From positions 151,707 to 215,706 of the forward strand of contig JBIOWE010000006.1 of the NCBI GenBank assembly GCA_044868145.1: 64,000 nt of DNA, read 5' to 3'. Numbering within the stretch: the first letter of the stretch is position 1; each line of letters starts with the position of its first letter. The notes beneath the pieces were generated by a model. It ran no database searches. It had not been told where the DNA came from and was given only the letters and a program-made list of their open reading frames with translations. The position numbers were made by a program, and so were the translations under genes. This stretch comes from Patescibacteria group bacterium. Lineage in GTDB: Bacteria > Patescibacteriota > Patescibacteriia > UBA10025 > JBIOWE01. This document shows positions 1,262 to 58,288 of this stretch, one piece after another.

Positions 1262-1890
1262 AAATAATTCCAGCAATTCTCGAAGATCGTATTGATCTCG
1301 TTGCCCAGCGTTTGAAGCAAGTGGAACCGTTCGTGAAGCAAGTGCAGGTTGATATTGCCGACGGAAAATTCGTTCCCAATCGCACCCATTTCAGCGCACA
1401 AGATTTACTCGGCATTTCGACGTCCCTCTCTATTGAACTGCACATGATGGTGAAAGAGCCGACTGCCACATTGCCGGTATGGTGCACGCATCCCCAATTG
1501 AACAGAATTATTGTTCACGTCGAATCGTCGCGCGACGTCAGACACGCCCTTGATTTAATCCGGTCATGCGGGAAGGAAGCGTGCCTCGCACTCAACCCGG
1601 AGACTCGGGCAAGCGTCATTGAATCGTTGGCCGGAGATTTCGACAGGCTACTGGTGATGGGTGTGCACCCCGGGCATTCTGGTCAAGCGTTTCTCGACGC
1701 CGTCTTGCCCAAAATTAAGTTCATCAGAATGAAGTATTCGCGCTTGCCCATAGAAGTCGATGGGGGAATCACGCATGATAACGCAAAGTCCATTGTCGAA
1801 GCAGGCGCCAGCGCGCTTGTCACGAACACACTTATTTTTCAAAACAACGACATTGACCAAAATATTCGTAAACTTCAACAAGCGATATGA
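1255..1890 (+). CDS. rpe: Ribulose-phosphate 3-epimerase
   Basis: VDIADGKFVPN and MGVHPGHSGQAF motifs typical of Rpe. Start overlaps the rpiB stop. Confidence 0.85.
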   Translation: MVEIIPAILEDRIDLVAQRLKQVEPFVKQVQVDIADGKFVPNRTHFSAQDLLGISTSLSIELHMMVKEPTATLPVWCTHPQLNRIIVHVESSRDVRHALDLIRSCGKEACLALNPETRASVIESLAGDFDRLLVMGVHPGHSGQAFLDAVLPKIKFIRMKYSRLPIEVDGGITHDNAKSIVEAGASALVTNTLIFQNNDIDQNIRKLQQAI

Positions 1891-11983: not shown

Positions 11984-12009
11984 AAAAAGCACCGTTTTGA
12001 GGCGGTGCT
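11984..12009. terminator. Bidirectional terminator (A-run, GCACCG stem, T-run) downstream of the minus-strand small gene
   Basis: AAAAAAGCACCGttttgaggCGGTGCT. Confidence 0.5.
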
Positions 12010-12048
12010 CCTAGATACTTTAGCCTTGAATTACTTTGTTGGTACCTC

Positions 12049-12237
12049 CTAGTCAGGATAAGTAATGTCTAAGATGCTTCCCGGCACGACTTTGTAAACA
12101 GATTTGAATTCAGGGTCCGCTGATATTTTTTCCGCTAGGAGTTTGTTTCGTAGTCTTTTTTCCGCTTGAGCTATGTTCAGCGAGTCTTCAAAGACAATGT
12201 AAGGTAGAGCCATTACGAAGAAACAATGAGCATGCAT
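12049..12237 (-). CDS. Small hypothetical protein (62 aa)
   Basis: Strong SD (AAGGAGGA, 5 nt before the ATG), its own TTGACA-17-TAAAAT promoter and a downstream terminator. Confidence 0.5.
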   Translation of the reverse strand: MHAHCFFVMALPYIVFEDSLNIAQAEKRLRNKLLAEKISADPEFKSVYKVVPGSILDITYPD

Positions 12238-12258
12238 TTTTCCTCCTTATTTTAGGGT

Positions 12259-12287
12259 ATTTTAGAATAGTGCATTCCTTTTGTCAA
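12259..12287 (-). promoter_or_regulatory. Sigma70-like promoter TTGACA-17-TAAAAT for the 62-aa gene
   Basis: Read on the minus strand. Confidence 0.5.
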
Positions 12288-13159: not shown

Positions 13160-13369
13160 GAATATACACAAAGCGGGGAGCGGGGAAGTCCCGCTACCGG
13201 TCTTCGTCGAGATTTCGCAACGCATCCTTCGCGAAACAGGTGAAAGTAAAGGCGGCCAATCAAAAGAAAAGGTGATGTTCCAATTGACGCCTTAAGAGGA
13301 TTTCTGTTAAAGTTGGTAAAGCTTATTGTTCGTTAACAAATAGTCAACCGAATAAAAGGAGGTGTTGCC

Positions 13370-14428
13370 ATGGCCGTACTGTATGAAATGGAAAAAAGGG
13401 GGCATGAACGTGTTTTTCATGTTTTCGACAAAGCATCAGGGTTACGTTGCATCATAGCCGTCCATGATACAACACTGGGACCTGCGCTTGGGGGGACTCG
13501 CATGTCTCTTTATAAGACTGAACAGGATGCATTAGTTGATGTCTTACGGCTCTCGCGAGGCATGACATACAAATCAGCGGTAGCAGACCTCTCGCTTGGT
13601 GGCGGGAAGGCCGTTATCATTGCTGACCCAGCGAAAGATAAAAGCGAGGAACTGTTCTTGGCCTACGGTAGAGCTATTGATCAGCTCGGCGGTTTGTATA
13701 TAACCGCTGAAGACGTTGGCACGACCGTTGCCGACATGGAAATAGTTCGTAAGGCTACTCGATGGGTAACCGGATTGCCGGAGAATTTAGGCGGTTCAGG
13801 CGATCCGTCGCCCGTGACTGCGTTCGGCGTCTATCGGGGCATGCAAGCTGCCATGGAAATCGTGTTTGGATCTGGCGATTTTCGAAGGCGTTCCATCGCG
13901 ATTCCTGGCTTAGGTAAAGTGGGTTATCCGCTTGCGGTGATGATGGCAAAAGACGGAGCGCAACTTTTTGTGGCTGACGTTAACCAAGTTGTTGCGCAGC
14001 AAGTGCAACGAGAGCTTGGTGCAACAATTGTGCATCCTGACGAAATTGCCACATTGAGTGTCGATATCTTGGCGCCTTGCGCACGCGGCGCAATTATCAA
14101 CAACAGGAATGTGTATACTATCAAAGCCAAGATAATCGCCGGAGCAGCGAACAATCAGCTGGAAGATGACAGCAAGCAAGGCCCGGTTCTTTTCTCAAAA
14201 GGGATTACCTATGTCGTCGACTTCGTGATCAACGCTGGCGGCGTCATAAACGTCTATAGCGAACTTGATCCCGCGGGTTTCAGCAGGGAAAAAGCTCTAG
14301 GACGCGCATCGTCAATTTACGATCGCGTAAAAGAATTGCTCACCATTTCCCGCTCGGAGAATATACCGACTACAGATGCAGCCATGATGATGGTTGAACG
14401 CCGGCTTGAGGCAGCTCGCAAAAAGTAA
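13370..14428 (+). CDS. ldh: Leucine (Leu/Val/Phe) dehydrogenase
   Basis: IIAVHDTTLGPALGGTRM and SDK...GGKAVI motifs nearly identical to characterised LeuDH. GGAGG SD. Confidence 0.85.
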   Translation: MAVLYEMEKRGHERVFHVFDKASGLRCIIAVHDTTLGPALGGTRMSLYKTEQDALVDVLRLSRGMTYKSAVADLSLGGGKAVIIADPAKDKSEELFLAYGRAIDQLGGLYITAEDVGTTVADMEIVRKATRWVTGLPENLGGSGDPSPVTAFGVYRGMQAAMEIVFGSGDFRRRSIAIPGLGKVGYPLAVMMAKDGAQLFVADVNQVVAQQVQRELGATIVHPDEIATLSVDILAPCARGAIINNRNVYTIKAKIIAGAANNQLEDDSKQGPVLFSKGITYVVDFVINAGGVINVYSELDPAGFSREKALGRASSIYDRVKELLTISRSENIPTTDAAMMMVERRLEAARKK

Positions 14429-16848: not shown

Positions 16849-18002
16849 AAGTTTATACCGTCTCTGAATTCAATAGCGCCTTGAAGTCCTACCTGGAAGA
16901 GGGGATGGCCAGCGTAGCAATTCAGGGCGAAGTCACTAGTTATCGAAAAGCCAAAGAAAAGCTTATCTATTTTGAGCTGAAGGATGACAAGGCGCGCGTG
17001 CTTTGTTTTATGCTCACGTGGGAGCTCAAAACGATTCTCGAGGATGGCATGGAAATCCGCGTGCACGGAAAGCCATCAATCTTCGTCGGCACAGGCGGTT
17101 TTCACGTCCGCGTGAAAGAAATCGAGCTGGTTGGCGCCGGCGCGCTACGAAAAGCGCTTGAACAACTTAAGCAAAAGCTTGAAAAAGAAGGGTTGTTCGC
17201 TCCAGAGCGCAAGCGTCCTTTGCCCCGTTTTCCATCGCATATTGGTTTGATCACCTCGCCGGACGCCGCCGCGTATACGGACGTCCTACGCATATTGAAA
17301 AATCGTTGGGCAGGCGTGACCGTGCACTTCTACCCGGTTTCTGTGCAAGGGTTCGGCGCCATCAAGGACATCATAGGCGCATTCAAATACTTCAATCGTA
17401 CGCACGAGGTAGAAGTGATTATTCTTACGCGCGGCGGCGGCAGTCTGGAAGATTTGCAAGCGTTCAACGCGGAAGACGTGGCCCGCGCTGTATTCGCGTC
17501 AACAATTCCCGTGGTATCCGGCGTTGGCCATGAACGCGACGTAACGATTGCCGACCTTGTTGCTGACCAGCGCGCTTCGACCCCTTCCAACGCTGCGGAA
17601 CGCGTTGTGCCGGATAAACATGAGGTACAAGCCGAACTCAGCTACATGGCTGAACGCCTGGAAGAACTTCTGCGACAGGAACTAGAAAGTAAGAACTTAT
17701 TTATTTCCACATTCGTTAGCAGATTTGAAGACTTGATACGACACAAACACACAGCTATAATAGAGAAAATTCTTCGCCTCAAGCAATCAGGCACGTATCT
17801 CATTCAGACGTGGCAAAATCGCATTCAAGAACATGAGCGTTTGCTCAAAACCCTTTCCCCGCAAGCAACGCTCGATCGGGGCTATAGCATTACGCGTAGG
17901 ATAGGGGATAAGAAGATTATCGCTAGCCCAACAGAGGTAAAGCCCGGCGAACGTATTCGAACGCGCTTGAAAAAAGGTGAGATTGAATCGAAGGTACAAT
18001 AA
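16845..18002 (+). CDS. xseA: Exodeoxyribonuclease VII large subunit
   Basis: OB-fold N-terminus plus catalytic core. Followed by xseB. Confidence 0.85.
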   Translation: MKVYTVSEFNSALKSYLEEGMASVAIQGEVTSYRKAKEKLIYFELKDDKARVLCFMLTWELKTILEDGMEIRVHGKPSIFVGTGGFHVRVKEIELVGAGALRKALEQLKQKLEKEGLFAPERKRPLPRFPSHIGLITSPDAAAYTDVLRILKNRWAGVTVHFYPVSVQGFGAIKDIIGAFKYFNRTHEVEVIILTRGGGSLEDLQAFNAEDVARAVFASTIPVVSGVGHERDVTIADLVADQRASTPSNAAERVVPDKHEVQAELSYMAERLEELLRQELESKNLFISTFVSRFEDLIRHKHTAIIEKILRLKQSGTYLIQTWQNRIQEHERLLKTLSPQATLDRGYSITRRIGDKKIIASPTEVKPGERIRTRLKKGEIESKVQ

Positions 18003-18339: not shown

Positions 18340-18368
18340 TTGACAGCAGTATTGTTATAGTATATACT
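18340..18368 (+). promoter_or_regulatory. Promoter TTGACA-17-TATACT followed by TATATACTA direct repeats
   Basis: Consensus hexamers. AGTATATACTA is repeated twice downstream. Confidence 0.55.
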
Positions 18369-18421
18369 AGGTATATATTAAGTATGAATGAAGTATATAC
18401 TAAGTATTAACGTTTTCTCCT

Positions 18422-18592
18422 ATGTACGACAATCGTTTGCGCAGAAAGGTGTTCCCGATCGGAAAGTACAGTTATGCGCTTACTGTGCCTAAGGATTTAT
18501 TGAAATTACTGGGTTGGCAGCCGGGGGAAGCGCTCGAAGTGGTGCCGGATTTGGGGAAAAAGCGAATTATTGTAAAGCGGTATAAGTTTTAG
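18422..18592 (+). CDS. AbrB/MazE/SpoVT-type (swapped-hairpin) DNA-binding protein, 56 aa; below the ORF-track cutoff
   Basis: MYDNRLRRKVFPIGKYSYALTVPKDLLKLLGWQPGEALEVVPDLGKKRIIVKRYKF matches the AbrB/MazE fold pattern. No SD. Confidence 0.55.
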   Translation: MYDNRLRRKVFPIGKYSYALTVPKDLLKLLGWQPGEALEVVPDLGKKRIIVKRYKF

Positions 18593-18747
18593 GAGACCCT
18601 GAATCAAGTTCAGGGTGACAATTAAAGACGGAATGCTCTTTTGCTGTCATGCTGAACCCTGTCCTGACGAATGTCAGGATTGTTTCAGCATCTCTATAGG
18701 TGAGGTCCCTCGCTCCGTCGCGTTTATATACGCGACTTCGCTCGGGA

Positions 18748-18793
18748 CGAAGGTCAAGTTTTCTTCATAAAGACTTGACCTTCGGTTTTTCTT
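18748..18793 (+). terminator. Rho-independent terminator (11-bp stem CGAAGGTCAAG / CTTGACCTTCG plus T-run) overlapping the next -35
   Basis: Read directly. Confidence 0.6.
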
Positions 18794-18803
18794 CGGCTAT
18801 ACT
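18775..18803 (+). promoter_or_regulatory. Promoter TTGACC-17-TATACT, 8 nt before the ATG at 18812
   Basis: Hexamers and spacing read directly. Confidence 0.5.
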
Positions 18804-23108: not shown

Positions 23109-23137
23109 TTTGACAATCTAAATCAGATTCAGTAAGA
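23109..23137 (+). promoter_or_regulatory. Promoter TTGACA-17-TAAGAT, then GGAGG SD and a GTG start
   Basis: Read directly. A weak GC hairpin plus T6 just upstream acts as terminator. Confidence 0.5.
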
Positions 23138-23160
23138 TAAAGGAAATCAAAGGAGGATCC

Positions 23161-23994
23161 GTGAACAGCTCTTTGAAATTCTGGTTGAAGGTTACACGGT
23201 TGTATCAATGCGTCATCGCTGGTTTGGCAAGTTGGATAACCGCTGTTCTTTGTGAAGGATCAACGTGGATTACTCAACAGAACGTTGTCGCCTTCGGGGT
23301 ATCAACTTTTGGTTGTCTTGGTGCATTTCTGATGCATTACGCTATTCGTCATGATACATATAAGAGCAAGTGGAAGGATGTTCACCATCAATATCGCCCG
23401 GCTTTGTTTTTGCATCTTGGTGCATATACATTTGCATTCTCAATGACCGTTGCTGCGCTATTCTTACCACTTGTCTGCCTATTCATCGTCACAATCAATT
23501 TCGCTGCTCTCTATATTTATGCCACTGTTATTCGTCATTGGTCATGGAAGAATCTCATTGCGTCTTTTCTTTGCATAACGCCGATTCTTATTGGTTGGTT
23601 TGCCGTTCAACATACAAATCCAGTGATACCATTTCTTCTCGTCAGTGCTTTTTGTATGTACATGGCTCGAGAAATCCTCAAAGATATGGAGGATCTCGAT
23701 GTTGATCGGGGTAAACGATTCACGATGGTTATGCGCTTTGGTCCTATTGCCACCATGCGGGTAGCTTCTTCTTTTCTCTTTGTCGCAGTCCTTTTCTACG
23801 GGCTAGCCGCCGTAACGATCCCACACCATTCAATGTCGGTTATTATTCCTTTCGTGATTGGGGCCATTCTTTTCTTCCAATTTGCCCTTCGCTTGTTGCT
23901 TGCCAGGGAATACACCTCTCAAGACTATAGAACCATTGATGCTGGTGTGGTAATGCTGATGCTAGCATTGTTGGCTGCCCGGGCAGGATTCTGA
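23161..23994 (+). CDS. UbiA-family prenyltransferase
   Basis: Polytopic. KDMEDLDVDRG Asp-rich motif. Confidence 0.7.
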   Translation: MNSSLKFWLKVTRLYQCVIAGLASWITAVLCEGSTWITQQNVVAFGVSTFGCLGAFLMHYAIRHDTYKSKWKDVHHQYRPALFLHLGAYTFAFSMTVAALFLPLVCLFIVTINFAALYIYATVIRHWSWKNLIASFLCITPILIGWFAVQHTNPVIPFLLVSAFCMYMAREILKDMEDLDVDRGKRFTMVMRFGPIATMRVASSFLFVAVLFYGLAAVTIPHHSMSVIIPFVIGAILFFQFALRLLLAREYTSQDYRTIDAGVVMLMLALLAARAGF

Positions 23995-30537: not shown

Positions 30538-30560
30538 GACTTTCAATCTTGTCTCAATTC

Positions 30561-30590
30561 AAGAAGCGGCCAAAAAGCCGCTTCTTTGGT
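30561..30590 (+). terminator. Rho-independent terminator (10-bp stem AAGAAGCGGC / GCCGCTTCTT)
   Basis: Read directly. Confidence 0.6.
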
Positions 30591-30702
30591 TACACTTTTC
30601 GATCAGCCGTGCCCTTTTTTCCTTATACCCCACAGGGTAAAATCAATTTTCACAATCATTCTTTATCGAGTGACGCACGAGGCAGGGGACAGCTTGGGCT
30701 AG

Positions 30703-30885
30703 TTAGCGTAACACTTTTATCGCGAGTTGATTTTTCAAAGCCTCTACTTTATTCTCAAGACTCGATAAACCAATCGCTAAGTTTTGGAGGCCAGCGTATA
30801 AATTGTACTTCTCGGGTTCAGTTTCCGGGTTTCCAAAAAGACGCAGGTTCTCATTAAATTGCTTAGCTGCATTTATCAAATGCAT
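30703..30885 (-). CDS. Small helical hypothetical protein (60 aa)
   Basis: Strong SD (AAAGGAGGTG, 6 nt before the ATG). Starts 20 nt after the upstream gene. Confidence 0.5.
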   Translation of the reverse strand: MHLINAAKQFNENLRLFGNPETEPEKYNLYAGLQNLAIGLSSLENKVEALKNQLAIKVLR

Positions 30886-30905
30886 ATGTGCACCTCCTTT
30901 CTATT

Positions 30906-31733
30906 CTACTGAAGTTTTTCTTTAACCGTTAAATAGTGAAAAATTACCTTTGGTTTGTTAAGCGCGCTCGGATCGATTAAGCCGGCGCCAAAACGTGCTT
31001 TATCGTTGAAGCTCCCGTTGACCGAAAAATTCCAAACAATTTCTTGACCACCGTTCAAGTCAAATAATTTTCCGTTTTGGTCGTAAAATTTTATGTTTAA
31101 TGTCACCGATCGTGTACTGCCATTTTCGATTTTAGCGTTTACATCAATAGTTGCCTTCACTGGCTGATCGACTGGGAAGCTTTCTGTTAAATAGCATCTC
31201 AGTTCGCTAGTCACTTTACAATTCTCGGGAAATTCAGGATTCCAATTTGGGTTGTCGACATCAAACGATTTAAGGCTGATTGCACGTCTATCACCATCGC
31301 CGATGATGATTTGGAAAGCATTTTCTACGATGATGTAAAAATCCGATGCTTCTGTTAGCGGCGTGAATTTGACTTCAATTACTGCGTGTTCAAAAATCGC
31401 TTTTGTTGAGAGATAATACGCGAACCCTTTTTTTGTATATCCTAGTGACAAAACACCTTCTTTGTTGAACCTAATGTCTCCAATTTTATCAAAACCTTCG
31501 AAATTTGTTGTTTCAATGCTATCAAGGGCACTTTCGCTCAATACTTTCTGTCTCCCTACCTCTTGTTCCGCAATCTGTTTTTTTTCTGCGGGAGTTGAAA
31601 AAAAGAAGTTGTAAATTTGTGTAACTTCAGCGCTAAATTCAACGCTAATAAGAGCAAACGCAAAAACTACCGACCCTAATTTTACAACTTTTTTTCGCCA
31701 CCATTTACTTGATTTTTTTGCAGCATCCTTCAT
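30906..31733 (-). CDS. Hypothetical membrane-anchored/secreted protein (275 aa)
   Basis: N-terminal transmembrane helix. Preceded by a promoter and a roughly 100-nt structured leader. Confidence 0.5.
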   Translation of the reverse strand: MKDAAKKSSKWWRKKVVKLGSVVFAFALISVEFSAEVTQIYNFFFSTPAEKKQIAEQEVGRQKVLSESALDSIETTNFEGFDKIGDIRFNKEGVLSLGYTKKGFAYYLSTKAIFEHAVIEVKFTPLTEASDFYIIVENAFQIIIGDGDRRAISLKSFDVDNPNWNPEFPENCKVTSELRCYLTESFPVDQPVKATIDVNAKIENGSTRSVTLNIKFYDQNGKLFDLNGGQEIVWNFSVNGSFNDKARFGAGLIDPSALNKPKVIFHYLTVKEKLQ

Positions 31734-34888: not shown

Positions 34889-34925
34889 GTAAGCTACAGT
34901 AAAAATGTGAGGTATAGCCCTTTAC

Positions 34926-35057
34926 TTGACATGTTTTATAGCGTATGTTATGTTTGTTTTGAAAGAAATCCTCTGCACTTTCTTGCTTGTGCTCCGATTC
35001 CAGGATGAGGTTTCTTTTCACAGTCCCCGCGACCATTATATGGGAGCGGGGTTTTTA
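34926..35057 (+). ncRNA. Candidate sRNA unit A (promoter TTGACA-17-TATGTT to CCCCGC hairpin terminator)
   Basis: Promoter hexamers at 34926-34954. Terminator CCCCGCGACC..GCGGGG plus T5 at 35025-35057. Confidence 0.4.
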
Positions 35058-35077
35058 TTGGTAGTTATGGAAAATGG

Positions 35078-35234
35078 TTGACGTCTTTTTCGCAGTCTGG
35101 TACATTGAGTTTGTCCGGAGCTTACCACTCCGCGTCATGCTCTTTCTCAATTCAGGTACTCTCATTTATTCTTTTTATCAAGTCCCTTTGATAGACCCCG
35201 CGACCATTTTACCATTATGGAAGCGGGGTTTTTA
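35078..35234 (+). ncRNA. Candidate sRNA unit B (TTGACG-17-TACATT to terminator)
   Basis: Promoter at 35078-35106. Terminator at 35196-35234. Homologous to unit C in its 5' block and terminator. Confidence 0.4.
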
Positions 35235-35273
35235 TTGCTAGTTTGGAAGTCATGAAATTCTGCATGAAAATGT

Positions 35274-35460
35274 TTGACACCTTTTTTGCAGTTTGTTACC
35301 TTTAGTTTGCCCGGAGCTTAGGCTCTAGACGGCATGTTCTTTCTAAGAGGATCCATTAGAGGATTCTTTATCTGCGAGATCCATGATTATCTGGGTCTTC
35401 GCCTAGTTTGCCAATATCCCCGCAACCATATCTACCATCGTGGAGGCGGGGATTTTTTAG
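35274..35460 (+). ncRNA. Candidate sRNA unit C (TTGACA-18-TACCTT to terminator)
   Basis: Promoter at 35274-35303. Terminator at 35419-35460. Confidence 0.4.
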
Positions 35461-35479
35461 TTATCCACAATGAGCACTT

Positions 35480-35620
35480 TGACAAATTTTTCGTTTGATT
35501 TATAGTATATTCAGCTAGAAGTTAGAGAAGCTCTAAGTCTTTTCTACAGCGTTAGCCGTAAACAACCAAAACGGTTGCCGCGAACACCCTCATTCTTTAA
35601 AGAGTGAGGGTATTTTTTAT
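35480..35620 (+). ncRNA. Candidate sRNA unit D (TTGACA-16-TATAGT to ACCCTCA hairpin terminator)
   Basis: Promoter at 35480-35507. Terminator at 35586-35620. No ATG in the transcript. Confidence 0.4.
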
Positions 35621-35750
35621 CCCCACACCAACTTTAGGAGACTTCTACCCACCTTCAGGTGAGGGTTTCTGACCTTTAGGTCAGGAAGACCGGGCTAAAG
35701 CCCTGAACACCCTCGGCTCAAGCCGGGTAGAAAAGAAGAAAAGTCGGGAT

Positions 35751-55627: not shown

Positions 55628-56602
55628 TTAATCAATGAATGATCGTAGGTCGCCTTCTGATGTTTTTCGCATTTTCATAATCTGCGCACGTTTTTTCATC
55701 ATTTTTGGTAGCAAAAAGAGAAATTGTAGGAAACCGAGGAATGTCGTTTGTTCCAAGAGAAAGACGTACAGAAATTTTCTGAGCTCGTACCAAATGATGA
55801 ACGGTAGATCTCGAAGAAAGTTGCTTGGTAACTCATTTTTTGCGATCATGAGCAACTGATTGCGATAGGACAAACGATTGATGAGCTTCCGGTCCTTGCG
55901 GGGTTGTAACGAGCGGATACGCCTGCTATGAAACGCGATTGCCGAAGGAACATACAGCGCTTTCCAGCCGGCGAGCTGTAATCGCCATGCCAGATCAACG
56001 TCTTCTTTGTAAGCAAAGAAATCTTCGTCGAAATATTCTTGTCCGAACTTGATTTGCTCAAGCGCTGCGCGACGCAAGAGAACCGCCGAACCGGAAAAGC
56101 CGAAGACGAATTCTTCCGCGTCATATTGCTTTTTGTCTGCTTCCCCTTCCCCCCGGTTGATTACCTTGCGTGATCGAAAGATTTGCAGGCTAGCAACGTC
56201 TATTCTAACAGAATATTGGCCATTTTTCAATGACGTGTTCGGCCGAAGTAGTTTGCCGGATGCGCTTCCGAGTGTTGTATCCCCTTCTATTTTGCTTATG
56301 AGAATTTCCAGGAATCTGGGTGAAAGCGTCACGTCCGGATTCAAGCAAAGAACGTAGGGCGTAATTGACGCGTTTATTGCCTGATTATGTGCCTTACAGT
56401 AGCCAGTGTTTCTGTCGTTACGTATGACTCGGATGTGAGGGGCTTTCTGGATATGTTCGAGCGTTCCGTCTTGCGATGCGTTATCGACGATAACGATTTC
56501 AAATGCGCGAAATGTCTGCGCTTGAATCGATGCAAGGCAGAGAGGCAAATCGTTTTTACTATTCCATGTAACGAGTGAAATTGTTAGTTTTGGATTTGAC
56601 AT
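55628..56602 (-). CDS. GT2 glycosyltransferase
   Basis: ISLVTWN...VDNASQDGT motifs. Confidence 0.8.
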   Translation of the reverse strand: MSNPKLTISLVTWNSKNDLPLCLASIQAQTFRAFEIVIVDNASQDGTLEHIQKAPHIRVIRNDRNTGYCKAHNQAINASITPYVLCLNPDVTLSPRFLEILISKIEGDTTLGSASGKLLRPNTSLKNGQYSVRIDVASLQIFRSRKVINRGEGEADKKQYDAEEFVFGFSGSAVLLRRAALEQIKFGQEYFDEDFFAYKEDVDLAWRLQLAGWKALYVPSAIAFHSRRIRSLQPRKDRKLINRLSYRNQLLMIAKNELPSNFLRDLPFIIWYELRKFLYVFLLEQTTFLGFLQFLFLLPKMMKKRAQIMKMRKTSEGDLRSFID

Positions 56603-56651
56603 TGTGCGTGTTTCACGCTATTTTAGAATTAAAGAAGAGGAGGGAGGAGCC

Positions 56652-56774
56652 ATGAAGGCACTAATAAAAATTATCGAATTCCTTCTGACCGTTATTGGAT
56701 TCTTGGTTGCACTTGGGATGCTTCTCTACATTCTGGCCTTTCACAAGGACCGATCGGAGACAGTACAGAGCTAG
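56652..56774 (+). CDS. 40-aa single-TM peptide (MKALIKIIEFLLTVIGFLVALGMLLYILAFHKDRSETVQS), not in the ORF track
   Basis: Very strong SD (AAGAGGAGGGAGGAG) ending 3 nt before the ATG. TTGACA-17-TATTTT upstream. Stop overlaps the stop of the convergent gene. Confidence 0.4.
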   Translation: MKALIKIIEFLLTVIGFLVALGMLLYILAFHKDRSETVQS

Positions 56775-58288
56775 CTTTCGATCTTTTGCTCACCCCCATT
56801 GGGTGAGCTTTTGATTTGCATTATGATACTCGCGAATACGACAATGAACATAATGCCGAGCGGGTGGTTAAGGTATGGAGTCGTAAAATGGGTAATGATT
56901 AATGCAAGGAATGCAAACAGGAGTCCCAAGGTGAGCGCACGGCCTTCATCCGGCCTGGTCTGTATCAACATTAGTCCTTGGCGGGCGATGACCCAAAGGA
57001 AGTACACATATGCCGCCAGTCCCAGAAAACCCATTTTAAGCGCGATATCTAGATACCCCCATTCAAAGGCGTATGAGGTATAGTTTCCGCCATTCAGTTC
57101 TTTCGTTCGCGGATCGAGCGTTTGATACGTTACTGTGGTTCCAAATCCCGATCCAAAGATCGGGTGTTCAAGCGCTTTGCTCACAAGAGGCTTGAATAAT
57201 TGGAATCGGCTGCCGAGTGCGGGCTCCTCCGTTGTGGTAATGCGCTGGCGAATCAAACTCGCGGCCGAGGATCCGCTCCTCCCCCCAGGCAGTTGAACAT
57301 TAATAAGGAACGTGATAAACGCCACTTCGAGAACCGCTAGCCCGACCATTATCCCGATGACCCTGCCAAAACGTTGCCAGCCGATTTTCTCTTTGGCTAG
57401 CCAGTAGATAAAAAGCACCACGAGCGAGATTGCCAGGGCGAGCCAGAAGCTTCTTGAGAAACTGATAGTGAGCGTAAGGCTTGAAAGAATCGCCACAAGC
57501 CACACAACACGCCAATCTTCCTTGCGCCATGCATGCCTTTTTCTGCCAACCAGAAAAACAATTGCGATGAGAAACGCGAACAAAGCCCAGATATGGCTCT
57601 GGAAAAAGATGCGAAAGAAGTTTTCCGTGATTTGGGCAATTTCGCCGACCCCGGTATTGCGCACCCACCTATACATTAGTCGAATGAGCGTTTCATCGGT
57701 TTGATGGGAGAAGTAATACAGCAAAAAAAGCGTTTTTATCCCAATGACCGACACGCTTGCGAACATCGTTTGTAGGGTTTGTGAAATGCGCTTCCAATTA
57801 TTGATGACCGTGAAACCTACAAACAGTAATCCAAAATACAGATATCCATTGACGTCAAAAAAGATATTTTTTGGATCATTATGATATAAGACCCCCATGA
57901 CCACGCCAAGGATAAGGAATGCTAGTAAGATTAAAAAAGGTAAAAAAAACGGTGAACGTTTCAATGTAATTTTTCGCGCTCGGATGACATGAAAAAGCCA
58001 GCCGAGGAATACGGCGAGAAAAATGCCGAGCCGTATGGATACAGTGAATTCGCCCATGTCAAAAGAAAAGAGATACCCCTTTGATCCAACGATCAGCTCC
58101 GCGAGCGCGATCCAGAAACCATATTCAATTTTCCAAAATGACAAAACAAGCGCTGCGCCTAGCGTAAGAAAAAAAACTACATGGTTGATCGGTCCAACAA
58201 AGTATCCAAGAAACGATGCTATCTCAAAAATAATAAGCAGCCAAAATGTTATTTTAAAATGCTGGCCGTAGAGTTTTATCTGGTTCAT
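56771..58288 (-). CDS. O-antigen ligase/polymerase-like polytopic membrane protein (Wzy/WaaL family)
   Basis: At least 10 transmembrane helices with a large periplasmic loop. Sits in the glycan cluster. Confidence 0.55.
   Translation of the reverse strand: MNQIKLYGQHFKITFWLLIIFEIASFLGYFVGPINHVVFFLTLGAALVLSFWKIEYGFWIALAELIVGSKGYLFSFDMGEFTVSIRLGIFLAVFLGWLFHVIRARKITLKRSPFFLPFLILLAFLILGVVMGVLYHNDPKNIFFDVNGYLYFGLLFVGFTVINNWKRISQTLQTMFASVSVIGIKTLFLLYYFSHQTDETLIRLMYRWVRNTGVGEIAQITENFFRIFFQSHIWALFAFLIAIVFLVGRKRHAWRKEDWRVVWLVAILSSLTLTISFSRSFWLALAISLVVLFIYWLAKEKIGWQRFGRVIGIMVGLAVLEVAFITFLINVQLPGGRSGSSAASLIRQRITTTEEPALGSRFQLFKPLVSKALEHPIFGSGFGTTVTYQTLDPRTKELNGGNYTSYAFEWGYLDIALKMGFLGLAAYVYFLWVIARQGLMLIQTRPDEGRALTLGLLFAFLALIITHFTTPYLNHPLGIMFIVVFASIIMQIKSSPNGGEQKIES

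Follow-up and report, generated by a model that had tools for sequence, protein, structure and literature searches.

The 64-kb window analysed here (the whole stretch of contig JBIOWE010000006.1 from an uncultured, Kerfeldbacteria-like Patescibacteria group bacterium) contains, between two minus-strand genes of a glycan operon, a plus-strand open reading frame (ORF) of 40 codons. We identify it, as far as its sequence allows, as an orphan gene for a small single-pass membrane protein that lies antisense within the operon. The cassette to which it belongs has its locus in a 168-nt spacer (56603..56770) that separates a gene for a Wzy-like membrane protein from the gene of a family-2 glycosyltransferase, called GT2a below. 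A preliminary description of this DNA had already placed the ORF inside the glycosyltransferase operon and on the opposite strand, which is correct for a plus-strand ORF lying amid the minus-strand Wzy-like and GT2a genes. It had also proposed that the ORF is expressed as a small transmembrane (TM) peptide. This proposal appears well supported by the predicted signals around the ORF, and it is strengthened by a terminator that the description did not contain. Taken as a whole, the account of a genuine, autonomous and lineage-specific mini-gene that makes a membrane peptide seems to us rather probable. The unit is composed of the following elements.

56596..56624, plus strand: promoter-like site TTGACA-17-TATTTT of the sigma-70 type, with the -35 hexamer at 56596-56601 and the -10 hexamer at 56619-56624 (10/12 consensus matches)
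56631..56651, plus strand: 5' leader, a 19-nt purine run AAAGAAGAGGAGGGAGGAG (56631-56649) followed by CC
56652..56774, plus strand: peptide ORF, with the ATG at 56652-56654, 40 codons and a TAG at 56772-56774; translation MKALIKIIEFLLTVIGFLVALGMLLYILAFHKDRSETVQS
56788..56818, plus strand: intrinsic terminator GCTCACCC-CCATT-GGGTGAGC then TTTTGATTTG, with a perfect 8-bp GC-rich stem (-13.9 kcal/mol)

Initiation signals of the cassette

The leader contains two overlapping GGAGG cores, at 56639-56643 and 56643-56647, which are located 8 and 4 nt from the ATG, and its purine run is the longest in the window. The duplex between this start and the anti-Shine-Dalgarno (anti-SD) sequence has a calculated energy of -12.5 kcal/mol, which places the peptide among the top three starts of the window. 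As a comparison, the 63 long ORFs of the window average -2.5 kcal/mol, and only 2 of the 63 reach -10 kcal/mol or lower. These values agree with the earlier statement that most genes of the window have little or no Shine-Dalgarno (SD) sequence. The very strong ribosome-binding site announced for the peptide is also recovered in the form of the double GGAGG, except that the run ends 2 nt, and not 3, before the ATG. A translation-initiation signal is thus present in the sequence.

The promoter of the preliminary description is found as well and scores 10 matches out of 12, although its -35 hexamer falls just outside the start coordinate that had been given for the element. The start codon of the divergent GT2a gene (56602-56600) shares nucleotides with this hexamer. 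The predicted transcription start is at about 56631, and 27 nt separate the end of the -10 hexamer from the start codon of the peptide.

A terminator specific to the plus strand

The terminator hairpin begins 14 nt past the stop codon of the peptide, within the last 13 codons of the Wzy-like gene. Its minus-strand side carries AAAAGATCG and no U-tract, so that the hairpin would be usable by a plus-strand transcript only, and the only plus-strand feature upstream of it is the peptide ORF. This part of the Wzy-like protein is its hydrophilic C-terminal tail, whose length and sequence are variable across all relatives, and an overlap with a terminator would therefore be tolerable at this place.

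We defined a strict terminator as a perfect stem of at least 7 bp with at least 4 GC pairs, followed by a T-tract. The window contains 8 such elements, the hairpin at 56788 included, versus 0-2 (mean 0.8) in ten shuffled sequences, which is an enrichment of about 10-fold, and at least 5 of the 8 are located 3-40 nt past a co-oriented stop codon. A looser definition was dropped as non-discriminating, with 142 matches in the window for about 95 in shuffled sequences. An upstream promoter and a downstream intrinsic terminator on the same strand, by which an independent transcription unit is recognised, are both found for the peptide ORF.

Layout of the peptide

The translation begins with MKALIK, continues with a hydrophobic core of about 20 residues and ends with the tail HKDRSETVQS. 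Lysines are found at positions 2 and 6 of the N-terminus, and the C-terminal tail is of mixed charge, without an aromatic cluster. The Kyte-Doolittle maximum over a 19-residue window is 2.66, and AlphaFold2 predicts one continuous helix from residue 2 to residue 39 with a predicted local distance difference test (pLDDT) score of 92. The single hydrophobic helix with a charged tail that had been read from the sequence is therefore confirmed at the level of prediction. Of the features by which bacterial small membrane proteins are recognised, a length of at most 50 aa, a single TM helix and a credible initiation signal are present, and conservation in related genomes is not seen.

Chance matches versus a real expression unit

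The two long genes with a strong SD encode a GDH-like protein (Glu/Leu/Phe/Val dehydrogenase-like, start at 13370) and a UbiA prenyltransferase (start at 23161). Each of them (regions 13345-13372 and 23110-23163, respectively) stands right behind its own promoter-like site. Over both strands of the window, GGAGG is found 4-8 nt before an ATG at nine sites. In five out of five SD-led starts (the GDH-like and UbiA genes, a 62-aa ORF, a 60-aa ORF and the peptide ORF), a promoter match is followed by a GGAGG-containing leader and then by the start. The distance from the -10 hexamer to the start is 17-27 nt in four of these five units and 56 nt at the GDH-like gene. SD use thus seems to be tied, in this SD-poor genome, to promoter-proximal starts with short leaders, and the cassette conforms to the layout that the genome uses for stand-alone transcription units.

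The window has about 40 SD-led ORFs with a length of 20-80 aa. Two of them alone combine a promoter with a strict terminator, the peptide ORF and the 62-aa ORF, and only the peptide is TM-like. For comparison, TM-like translations make up 0.27% of the open 39-codon windows in the non-coding frames of the genes of the window. It is very unlikely that the four ordered signals and the TM-like frame came together by chance. Altogether, these sequence signals lead us to consider that the cassette is very probably a real expression unit.

The glycan operon around the cassette

The two genes that flank the cassette are the following.

56771..58288, minus strand: Wzy-like gene, 505-aa Wzy_C, O-antigen ligase/polymerase-like membrane protein (Pfam PF04932, E = 1.4e-13)
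55628..56602, minus strand: GT2a gene, 324-aa family-2 glycosyltransferase (PF00535, E = 2.3e-23), without SD

The minus-strand cluster reads GT2c, methyltransferase, Wzy-like gene, GT2a, GT2b and a DUF4012 gene, with more co-directional ORFs downstream, and its other genes overlap or almost touch each other. The small ORF is oriented head-on to the operon, running towards the Wzy-like gene (convergent) and away from GT2a (divergent). Its start is 49 nt from the ATG of GT2a, and its distance to the Wzy-like gene is -3 nt owing to an overlap of the stop codons. The TAG of the peptide (56772-56774) and the minus-strand TAG of Wzy_C (56771-56773) share the palindrome CTAG (56771-56774), and the stop overlap of the preliminary description is thus borne out. 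A search for a minus-strand promoter of GT2a within the cassette returned only an isolated TAAAAT without a -35 hexamer, and sites of 8/12 matches.

For comparison of the flanking genes, 165 related loci were retrieved, and the relatives that carry these genes are all Patescibacteria metagenome-assembled genomes. The closest ones that keep both flanks (L163-L165) are 58-59% identical in Wzy, 49-50% in GT2a and 70% in GT2b. In these three loci a single nucleotide separates the Wzy stop from the ATG of GT2a (TAAtATG), and the two genes are presumably translationally coupled in relatives. The gap from Wzy to GT2a ranges from -62 to +13 nt in more distant loci with GT2a, and relatives without GT2a have a gap of 34-99 nt between Wzy and GT2b. 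The sole long gap, of 275 nt in L098, was searched for an analogous small ORF and contains nothing similar. Since the flanks abut within 1 nt in L163-L165, the 168-nt cassette is either an insertion specific to this lineage or an expansion that arose de novo, and it interrupts a junction that is tight elsewhere.

Independently of the cassette, GT2a itself shows a presence/absence polymorphism between Wzy and GT2b (L081, L001-L009 and L161/L162 versus L163-L165 and L010-L013). It is missing from most of the closest genomes, in which GT2b follows 26-99 nt after Wzy, and where it is present elsewhere it either overlaps the Wzy stop or lies up to 13 nt beyond it.

We also observed that an imperfect 16-nt direct repeat brackets the cassette. 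The copies GTTAGTTTTGGATTTG (56583-56598) and GTGAGCTTTTGATTTG (56803-56818) match at 13/16 positions with a spacing of 220 nt, one being located in the first codons of GT2a and the other in the 3' arm and T-tract of the terminator. This repeat may be due to chance or may be the trace of an insertion event. Terminal inverted repeats or transposon-like ends were not found at the cassette. As for a second copy, a paralogue or an internal origin of the cassette or peptide, none was found in the window, the rest of the genome having been covered through its called proteins only.

Distribution of the peptide and points against a functional gene

Several observations weigh against the reading of the cassette as a functional peptide gene, and most of them concern its distribution. 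A word-index search of 5.8 billion clusters and an exhaustive phmmer search of 1.84 billion representatives both returned only the peptide itself (P0001, a one-member cluster). With no homologue anywhere, evolutionary evidence of purifying selection is lacking. The peptide is present on two contigs, one of 397,665 bp and a 57-kb Logan contig, and this sole second assembly gives no sequence variation, the Logan locus (L166) being identical to the window. The contig with the cassette is also obtained by assembly of run SRR30692719. Concerning the expression signals, the window contains 27 promoter matches of at least 10/12 for 16 in shuffled sequences, so that the promoter match by itself is weak evidence, being about 60% likely to be due to chance. 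Furthermore, the rules used here for promoters, SD sequences and terminators come from model bacteria and are applied to a Patescibacteria genome. Finally, the codon-usage score of the peptide (10.43) equals the median for real coding windows, but this score no longer discriminates after conditioning on hydrophobicity.

Other searches gave a consistent picture. The peptide has no significant match in phage and plasmid collections, no match in NCBIfam or PADLOC, and in Pfam at E <= 1 only the noise matches DEC1 and TMEM171. The best PHROG match, phrog_502 (E = 0.012), is weak and covers residues 1-19 only. Rfam 15, searched on both strands of 56450-56950, gave no match at the gathering score or at E <= 1. 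Comparison by tblastn of the peptide with 160 related loci gave no match, and the peptide is absent from all 165 related loci, including those that have both flanking genes. As grounds for refuting the proposal, the preliminary description had named a missing translation signal and a lack of conservation in relatives with the flanking genes. The lack of conservation is observed in every such relative, in a test of low resolution, as the closest available relative is 58-61% identical in Wzy. The translation signals, in contrast, are clearly present.

Alternative explanations

The preliminary description had likened the peptide to a type I toxin or a regulatory membrane peptide. One could imagine a type I toxin-antitoxin-like module in which the read-through mRNA of the operon, or an antisense RNA from the 3' end of the Wzy-like gene, would neutralise the peptide mRNA, and in which silencing of the operon would free the toxin, but we regard this as unlikely. 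The protein itself fits well. The criteria of Fozo et al. 2010 (PMC2887945) set an upper limit of 70 aa and require a TM region together with a C-terminus in which polar, charged or aromatic residues are frequent, and the peptide has 40 aa (or 56 aa from a GTG), a TM helix and a polar and charged C-terminus. As in Fst/Ldr or TxpA toxins, the helix is N-terminal, the length is similar, and the unit is a lineage-specific intergenic insertion, self-contained, orphan and patchy in distribution. By geometry, the operon transcript would moreover provide complete antisense coverage. The strong SD is also predicted to be mostly paired (unpaired probability 0.232), but this pairing is not above that of 300 synonymous recodings (0.226 +/- 0.097). 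The genomic setting argues against such a module. The same criteria ask for spacers of at least 400 nt upstream and at least 250 nt downstream (PMC2887945), whereas the neighbours of the peptide are found at 49 nt and -3 nt and the whole gap measures 168 nt. On the minus strand of 56450-57050, we found neither a promoter of at least 9/12 matches nor a terminator that would indicate an antitoxin small RNA (sRNA), the best promoter matches being 8/12 at 56850-56820, and such consensus scans are weak in this phylum. The only certain antisense RNA to the peptide mRNA would thus be the operon mRNA. The unit is a single copy, without the tandem repeats or paralogues of such toxins, and no significant match to known type I toxin families (Hok/Gef, Fst, Ldr, TisB, Ibs and others) was found in Pfam, NCBIfam or PADLOC. 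Type I toxin mRNAs typically have long structured 5' untranslated regions, for which a leader of about 20 nt leaves no space. The resemblance would then be one of architecture only (size below 70 aa, one TM helix, charged tail), and membership in a type I family is not supported by the sequence. A non-canonical variant in Patescibacteria, a phylum from which no type I system is known, in which the operon mRNA would itself be the antitoxin of a toxin encoded antisense within the operon, is highly improbable in our opinion. Such a case would stand out, as type I systems have been reported only from Proteobacteria, Firmicutes and Tenericutes, with one cyanobacterial candidate (PMC12390103). If true, a 40-aa membrane toxin would enforce transcription of the glycan operon, and the cell would be addicted to operon expression.

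The remaining alternatives concern the product itself. The functional product could be an RNA, or the act of transcription, with a head-on promoter and a cis-antisense RNA that down-tune or uncouple Wzy and GT2a in the manner of an excludon or of transcriptional interference, and a peptide that would be incidental. This idea accounts for a promoter that aims against the operon, a terminator placed inside the coding end of Wzy, a transcript that spans the entire intercistronic junction and an insertion that disrupts the 1-nt juxtaposition of Wzy and GT2a seen in relatives. An antisense RNA, however, needs neither an optimally spaced double GGAGG with an ATG nor a TM-like 40-codon frame ending 14 nt before a terminator. 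In addition, the fold of the whole plus-strand transcript is unremarkable (z = -1.39) and no Rfam match was found. We regard an RNA-only function as quite improbable. It is also clearly unlikely, in our view, that the DNA is not or barely functional, be it a young proto-gene, the stump of a larger insertion that kept expression signals, or a chance ORF in which the polypyrimidine complement of the supposed SD serves the minus-strand mRNA ahead of GT2a, a gene that has no SD. The orphan status of the peptide, its absence from all relatives and its lack of sequence variation speak for this, as do the CU-rich tract found on the operon mRNA 30-48 nt upstream of the GT2a start and the weak N-terminal similarity to phrog_502. 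Against it stand the joint occurrence of the four ordered signals with a TM-like frame and an ORF that stops just ahead of a terminator, like an intact unit, and no comparable tract is found at other SD-less genes of the window. The joint statistics contradict the chance ORF in particular. Finally, the real product could be a 56-aa form starting at GTG 56604 (P0001), in which the purine run would encode EEEGG. Public gene callers annotate the ORF in this form and, as most genes of this genome have no SD, the missing SD before the GTG is not disqualifying. However, the GTG falls within the only promoter-like site, after its -35 and before its -10 hexamer, and the predicted transcript therefore starts downstream of this codon, and the ATG has an SD at the spacing used by other SD-led genes. 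The longer form is consequently very unlikely.

Proposed mode of action

For the autonomous mini-gene that we favour, we propose the following sequence of events. A unit inserted, or arisen de novo, between two genes that are 1 nt apart in relatives would be transcribed from the sigma-70-type promoter into an RNA of about 185 nt, from about 56631 to about 56815. The leader of about 20 nt, which is essentially a double GGAGG ribosome-binding site, would drive efficient translation in a genome whose initiation is otherwise SD-less. The 40-residue product would form one TM helix with a short charged tail and insert into the membrane, and transcription would end at the intrinsic terminator located in dispensable tail codons of the Wzy-like gene. 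The peptide could then act on the membrane or on a larger component of it, through binding or perturbation. This last step is a working model taken from the class of small membrane proteins, which usually bind larger membrane proteins and modulate them, or else disturb the membrane (PMC7549839).

As the unit is transcribed against the operon, polymerases would collide within about 200 bp, and the small mRNA would be complementary over its full length to the operon mRNA. It would span the Wzy/GT2a junction from the last Wzy codons, covered by its 3' end, to a point about 29 nt upstream of the GT2a start, where its 5' end lies. From this collision and from sense/antisense pairing, we infer that expression of the peptide and that of the operon would be antagonistic. 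The suggestion that convergent transcription modulates the Wzy-like gene is geometrically possible, given the plus-strand terminator within its last 13 codons.

Other small units in the window and in related loci

A second complete mini-gene is located on the minus strand at 11988-12287. It combines a TTGACA-17-TAAAAT promoter (12287-12259, 11/12), an AAGGAGG SD, the 62-aa ORF (12237-12049) and a strict terminator (12009-11988). The product does not look like a membrane protein, and neither Pfam nor NCBIfam gives a match for it. The 60-aa ORF (start at 30885; 30703-30897, minus strand) has the SD AAAGGAGGTG with -15.2 kcal/mol and a 9/12 promoter, and it lies directly downstream of a gene ending at 30906. 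It conflicts with a plus-strand 102-aa ORF that starts with TTG (30549-30857), the latter being probably spurious. Its product has a helical or coiled-coil look and no family match.

On the plus strand, an 860-bp gap between two minus-strand genes (34890-35750) contains four promoter-to-terminator mini-units without a convincing ORF. Their promoters are TTGACA at 34926, TTGACG at 35079, TTGACA at 35275 and TTGACA at 35479, and the respective terminator hairpins are at 35025-35051, 35193-35231, 35416-35453 and 35586-35611. Units 1-3 have terminator stems of the common type CCCCGC[G/A]ACCAT...GCGGGG, and units 2-3 also have a promoter and 5' region in common. They look like tandem paralogous sRNA genes, and Rfam gave no match for them at E <= 1. 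Duplex scores for pairing between the peptide mRNA and these tandem sRNA-like units (34.9-35.7 kb) were not significant. A further plus-strand region, 18340-18800, lies in the gap after a gene ending at 18002. It has a promoter with 11/12 matches at 18340-18368 and a strict terminator at 18662-18679, as well as a hairpin of great stability (-20 kcal/mol) at 18748-18784 and a second promoter at 18775-18803, and these elements may represent further small transcription units.

Small ORFs were also observed near the Wzy-like gene in distant Patescibacteria relatives. They form clusters of 2-4 SD-led ORFs (47-75 aa, 1-2 TM), non-homologous to the peptide of the window, which are located on the strand of the Wzy-like gene, about 1.8-2.7 kb past its end.

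L031, 9006-9769, strand of the Wzy-like gene: small-ORF cluster
L127, 8130-8964, strand of the Wzy-like gene: small-ORF cluster
L044, 9918-10308, strand of the Wzy-like gene: small-ORF cluster
L063, 9847-10244, strand of the Wzy-like gene: small-ORF cluster
L065, 9309-9641, strand of the Wzy-like gene: small-ORF cluster

In addition, a 1.9-kb metagenome contig (L136) carries a 76-aa ORF (1540-1767, minus strand) that is convergent to, and just downstream of, a Wzy-like gene. This ORF has a strong SD (-11.4 kcal/mol) and a strict terminator. Its product has one TM helix and a tail rich in Cys (CxxC...CxxC), and its sequence is unrelated to the peptide of the window.

Comparison with known systems and significance

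YohP, AcrZ and MgrB are examples of small single-pass membrane proteins, a class whose members are found by criteria on ribosome-binding sites and TM segments and to which our peptide would be a new addition. Like the members of this class (PMC7549839), the peptide has fewer than 50 aa, about one TM helix and short polar ends, with a strong ribosome-binding site, a small transcription unit of its own and no enzymatic domain. On the other hand, known small membrane proteins are conserved across related species, and a regulon or partner is usually known for them, whereas the peptide of the window has no homologue. It also differs from them by its antisense position inside an operon and by its occurrence in a Patescibacteria genome that hardly uses SD sequences.

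A parallel can be drawn with excludons, cis-antisense RNAs and convergent switches, in which a promoter is likewise directed against an operon and overlapping transcripts could antagonise each other. In excludons, the antisense RNA is long and serves at the same time as the mRNA of a neighbouring divergent operon. The unit of the window, by contrast, is about 185 nt long, has its own terminator and encodes just a 40-aa peptide. As for convergent-transcription switches, they have been addressed by general modelling (PMC4519249).

A last comparison concerns orphan small genes (PMC13554803) and the catalogued small ORFs (smORF catalogue, PMC11364881), with which the peptide has in common the absence of a detectable homologue, the short length and the TM prediction, the latter being common among smORFs. 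Unlike many predicted orphans, it comes with a full set of expression signals that are independently significant.

On the present sequence evidence, the peptide gene remains so far a single hypothetical small protein. If it is expressed, it would be a clean case of a small membrane protein gene with a restricted taxonomic range, carried by an ultra-small and SD-poor Patescibacteria genome and set head-on between two genes of a conserved surface-glycan operon whose normal spacing is 1 nt. It would provide a test case for the birth or insertion of mini-genes in streamlined genomes, and also for the question of whether antisense-embedded peptides tune or police cell-envelope operons. Moreover, the local rule by which an SD marks a promoter-proximal start behind a short leader could reveal more unannotated small genes in such genomes.

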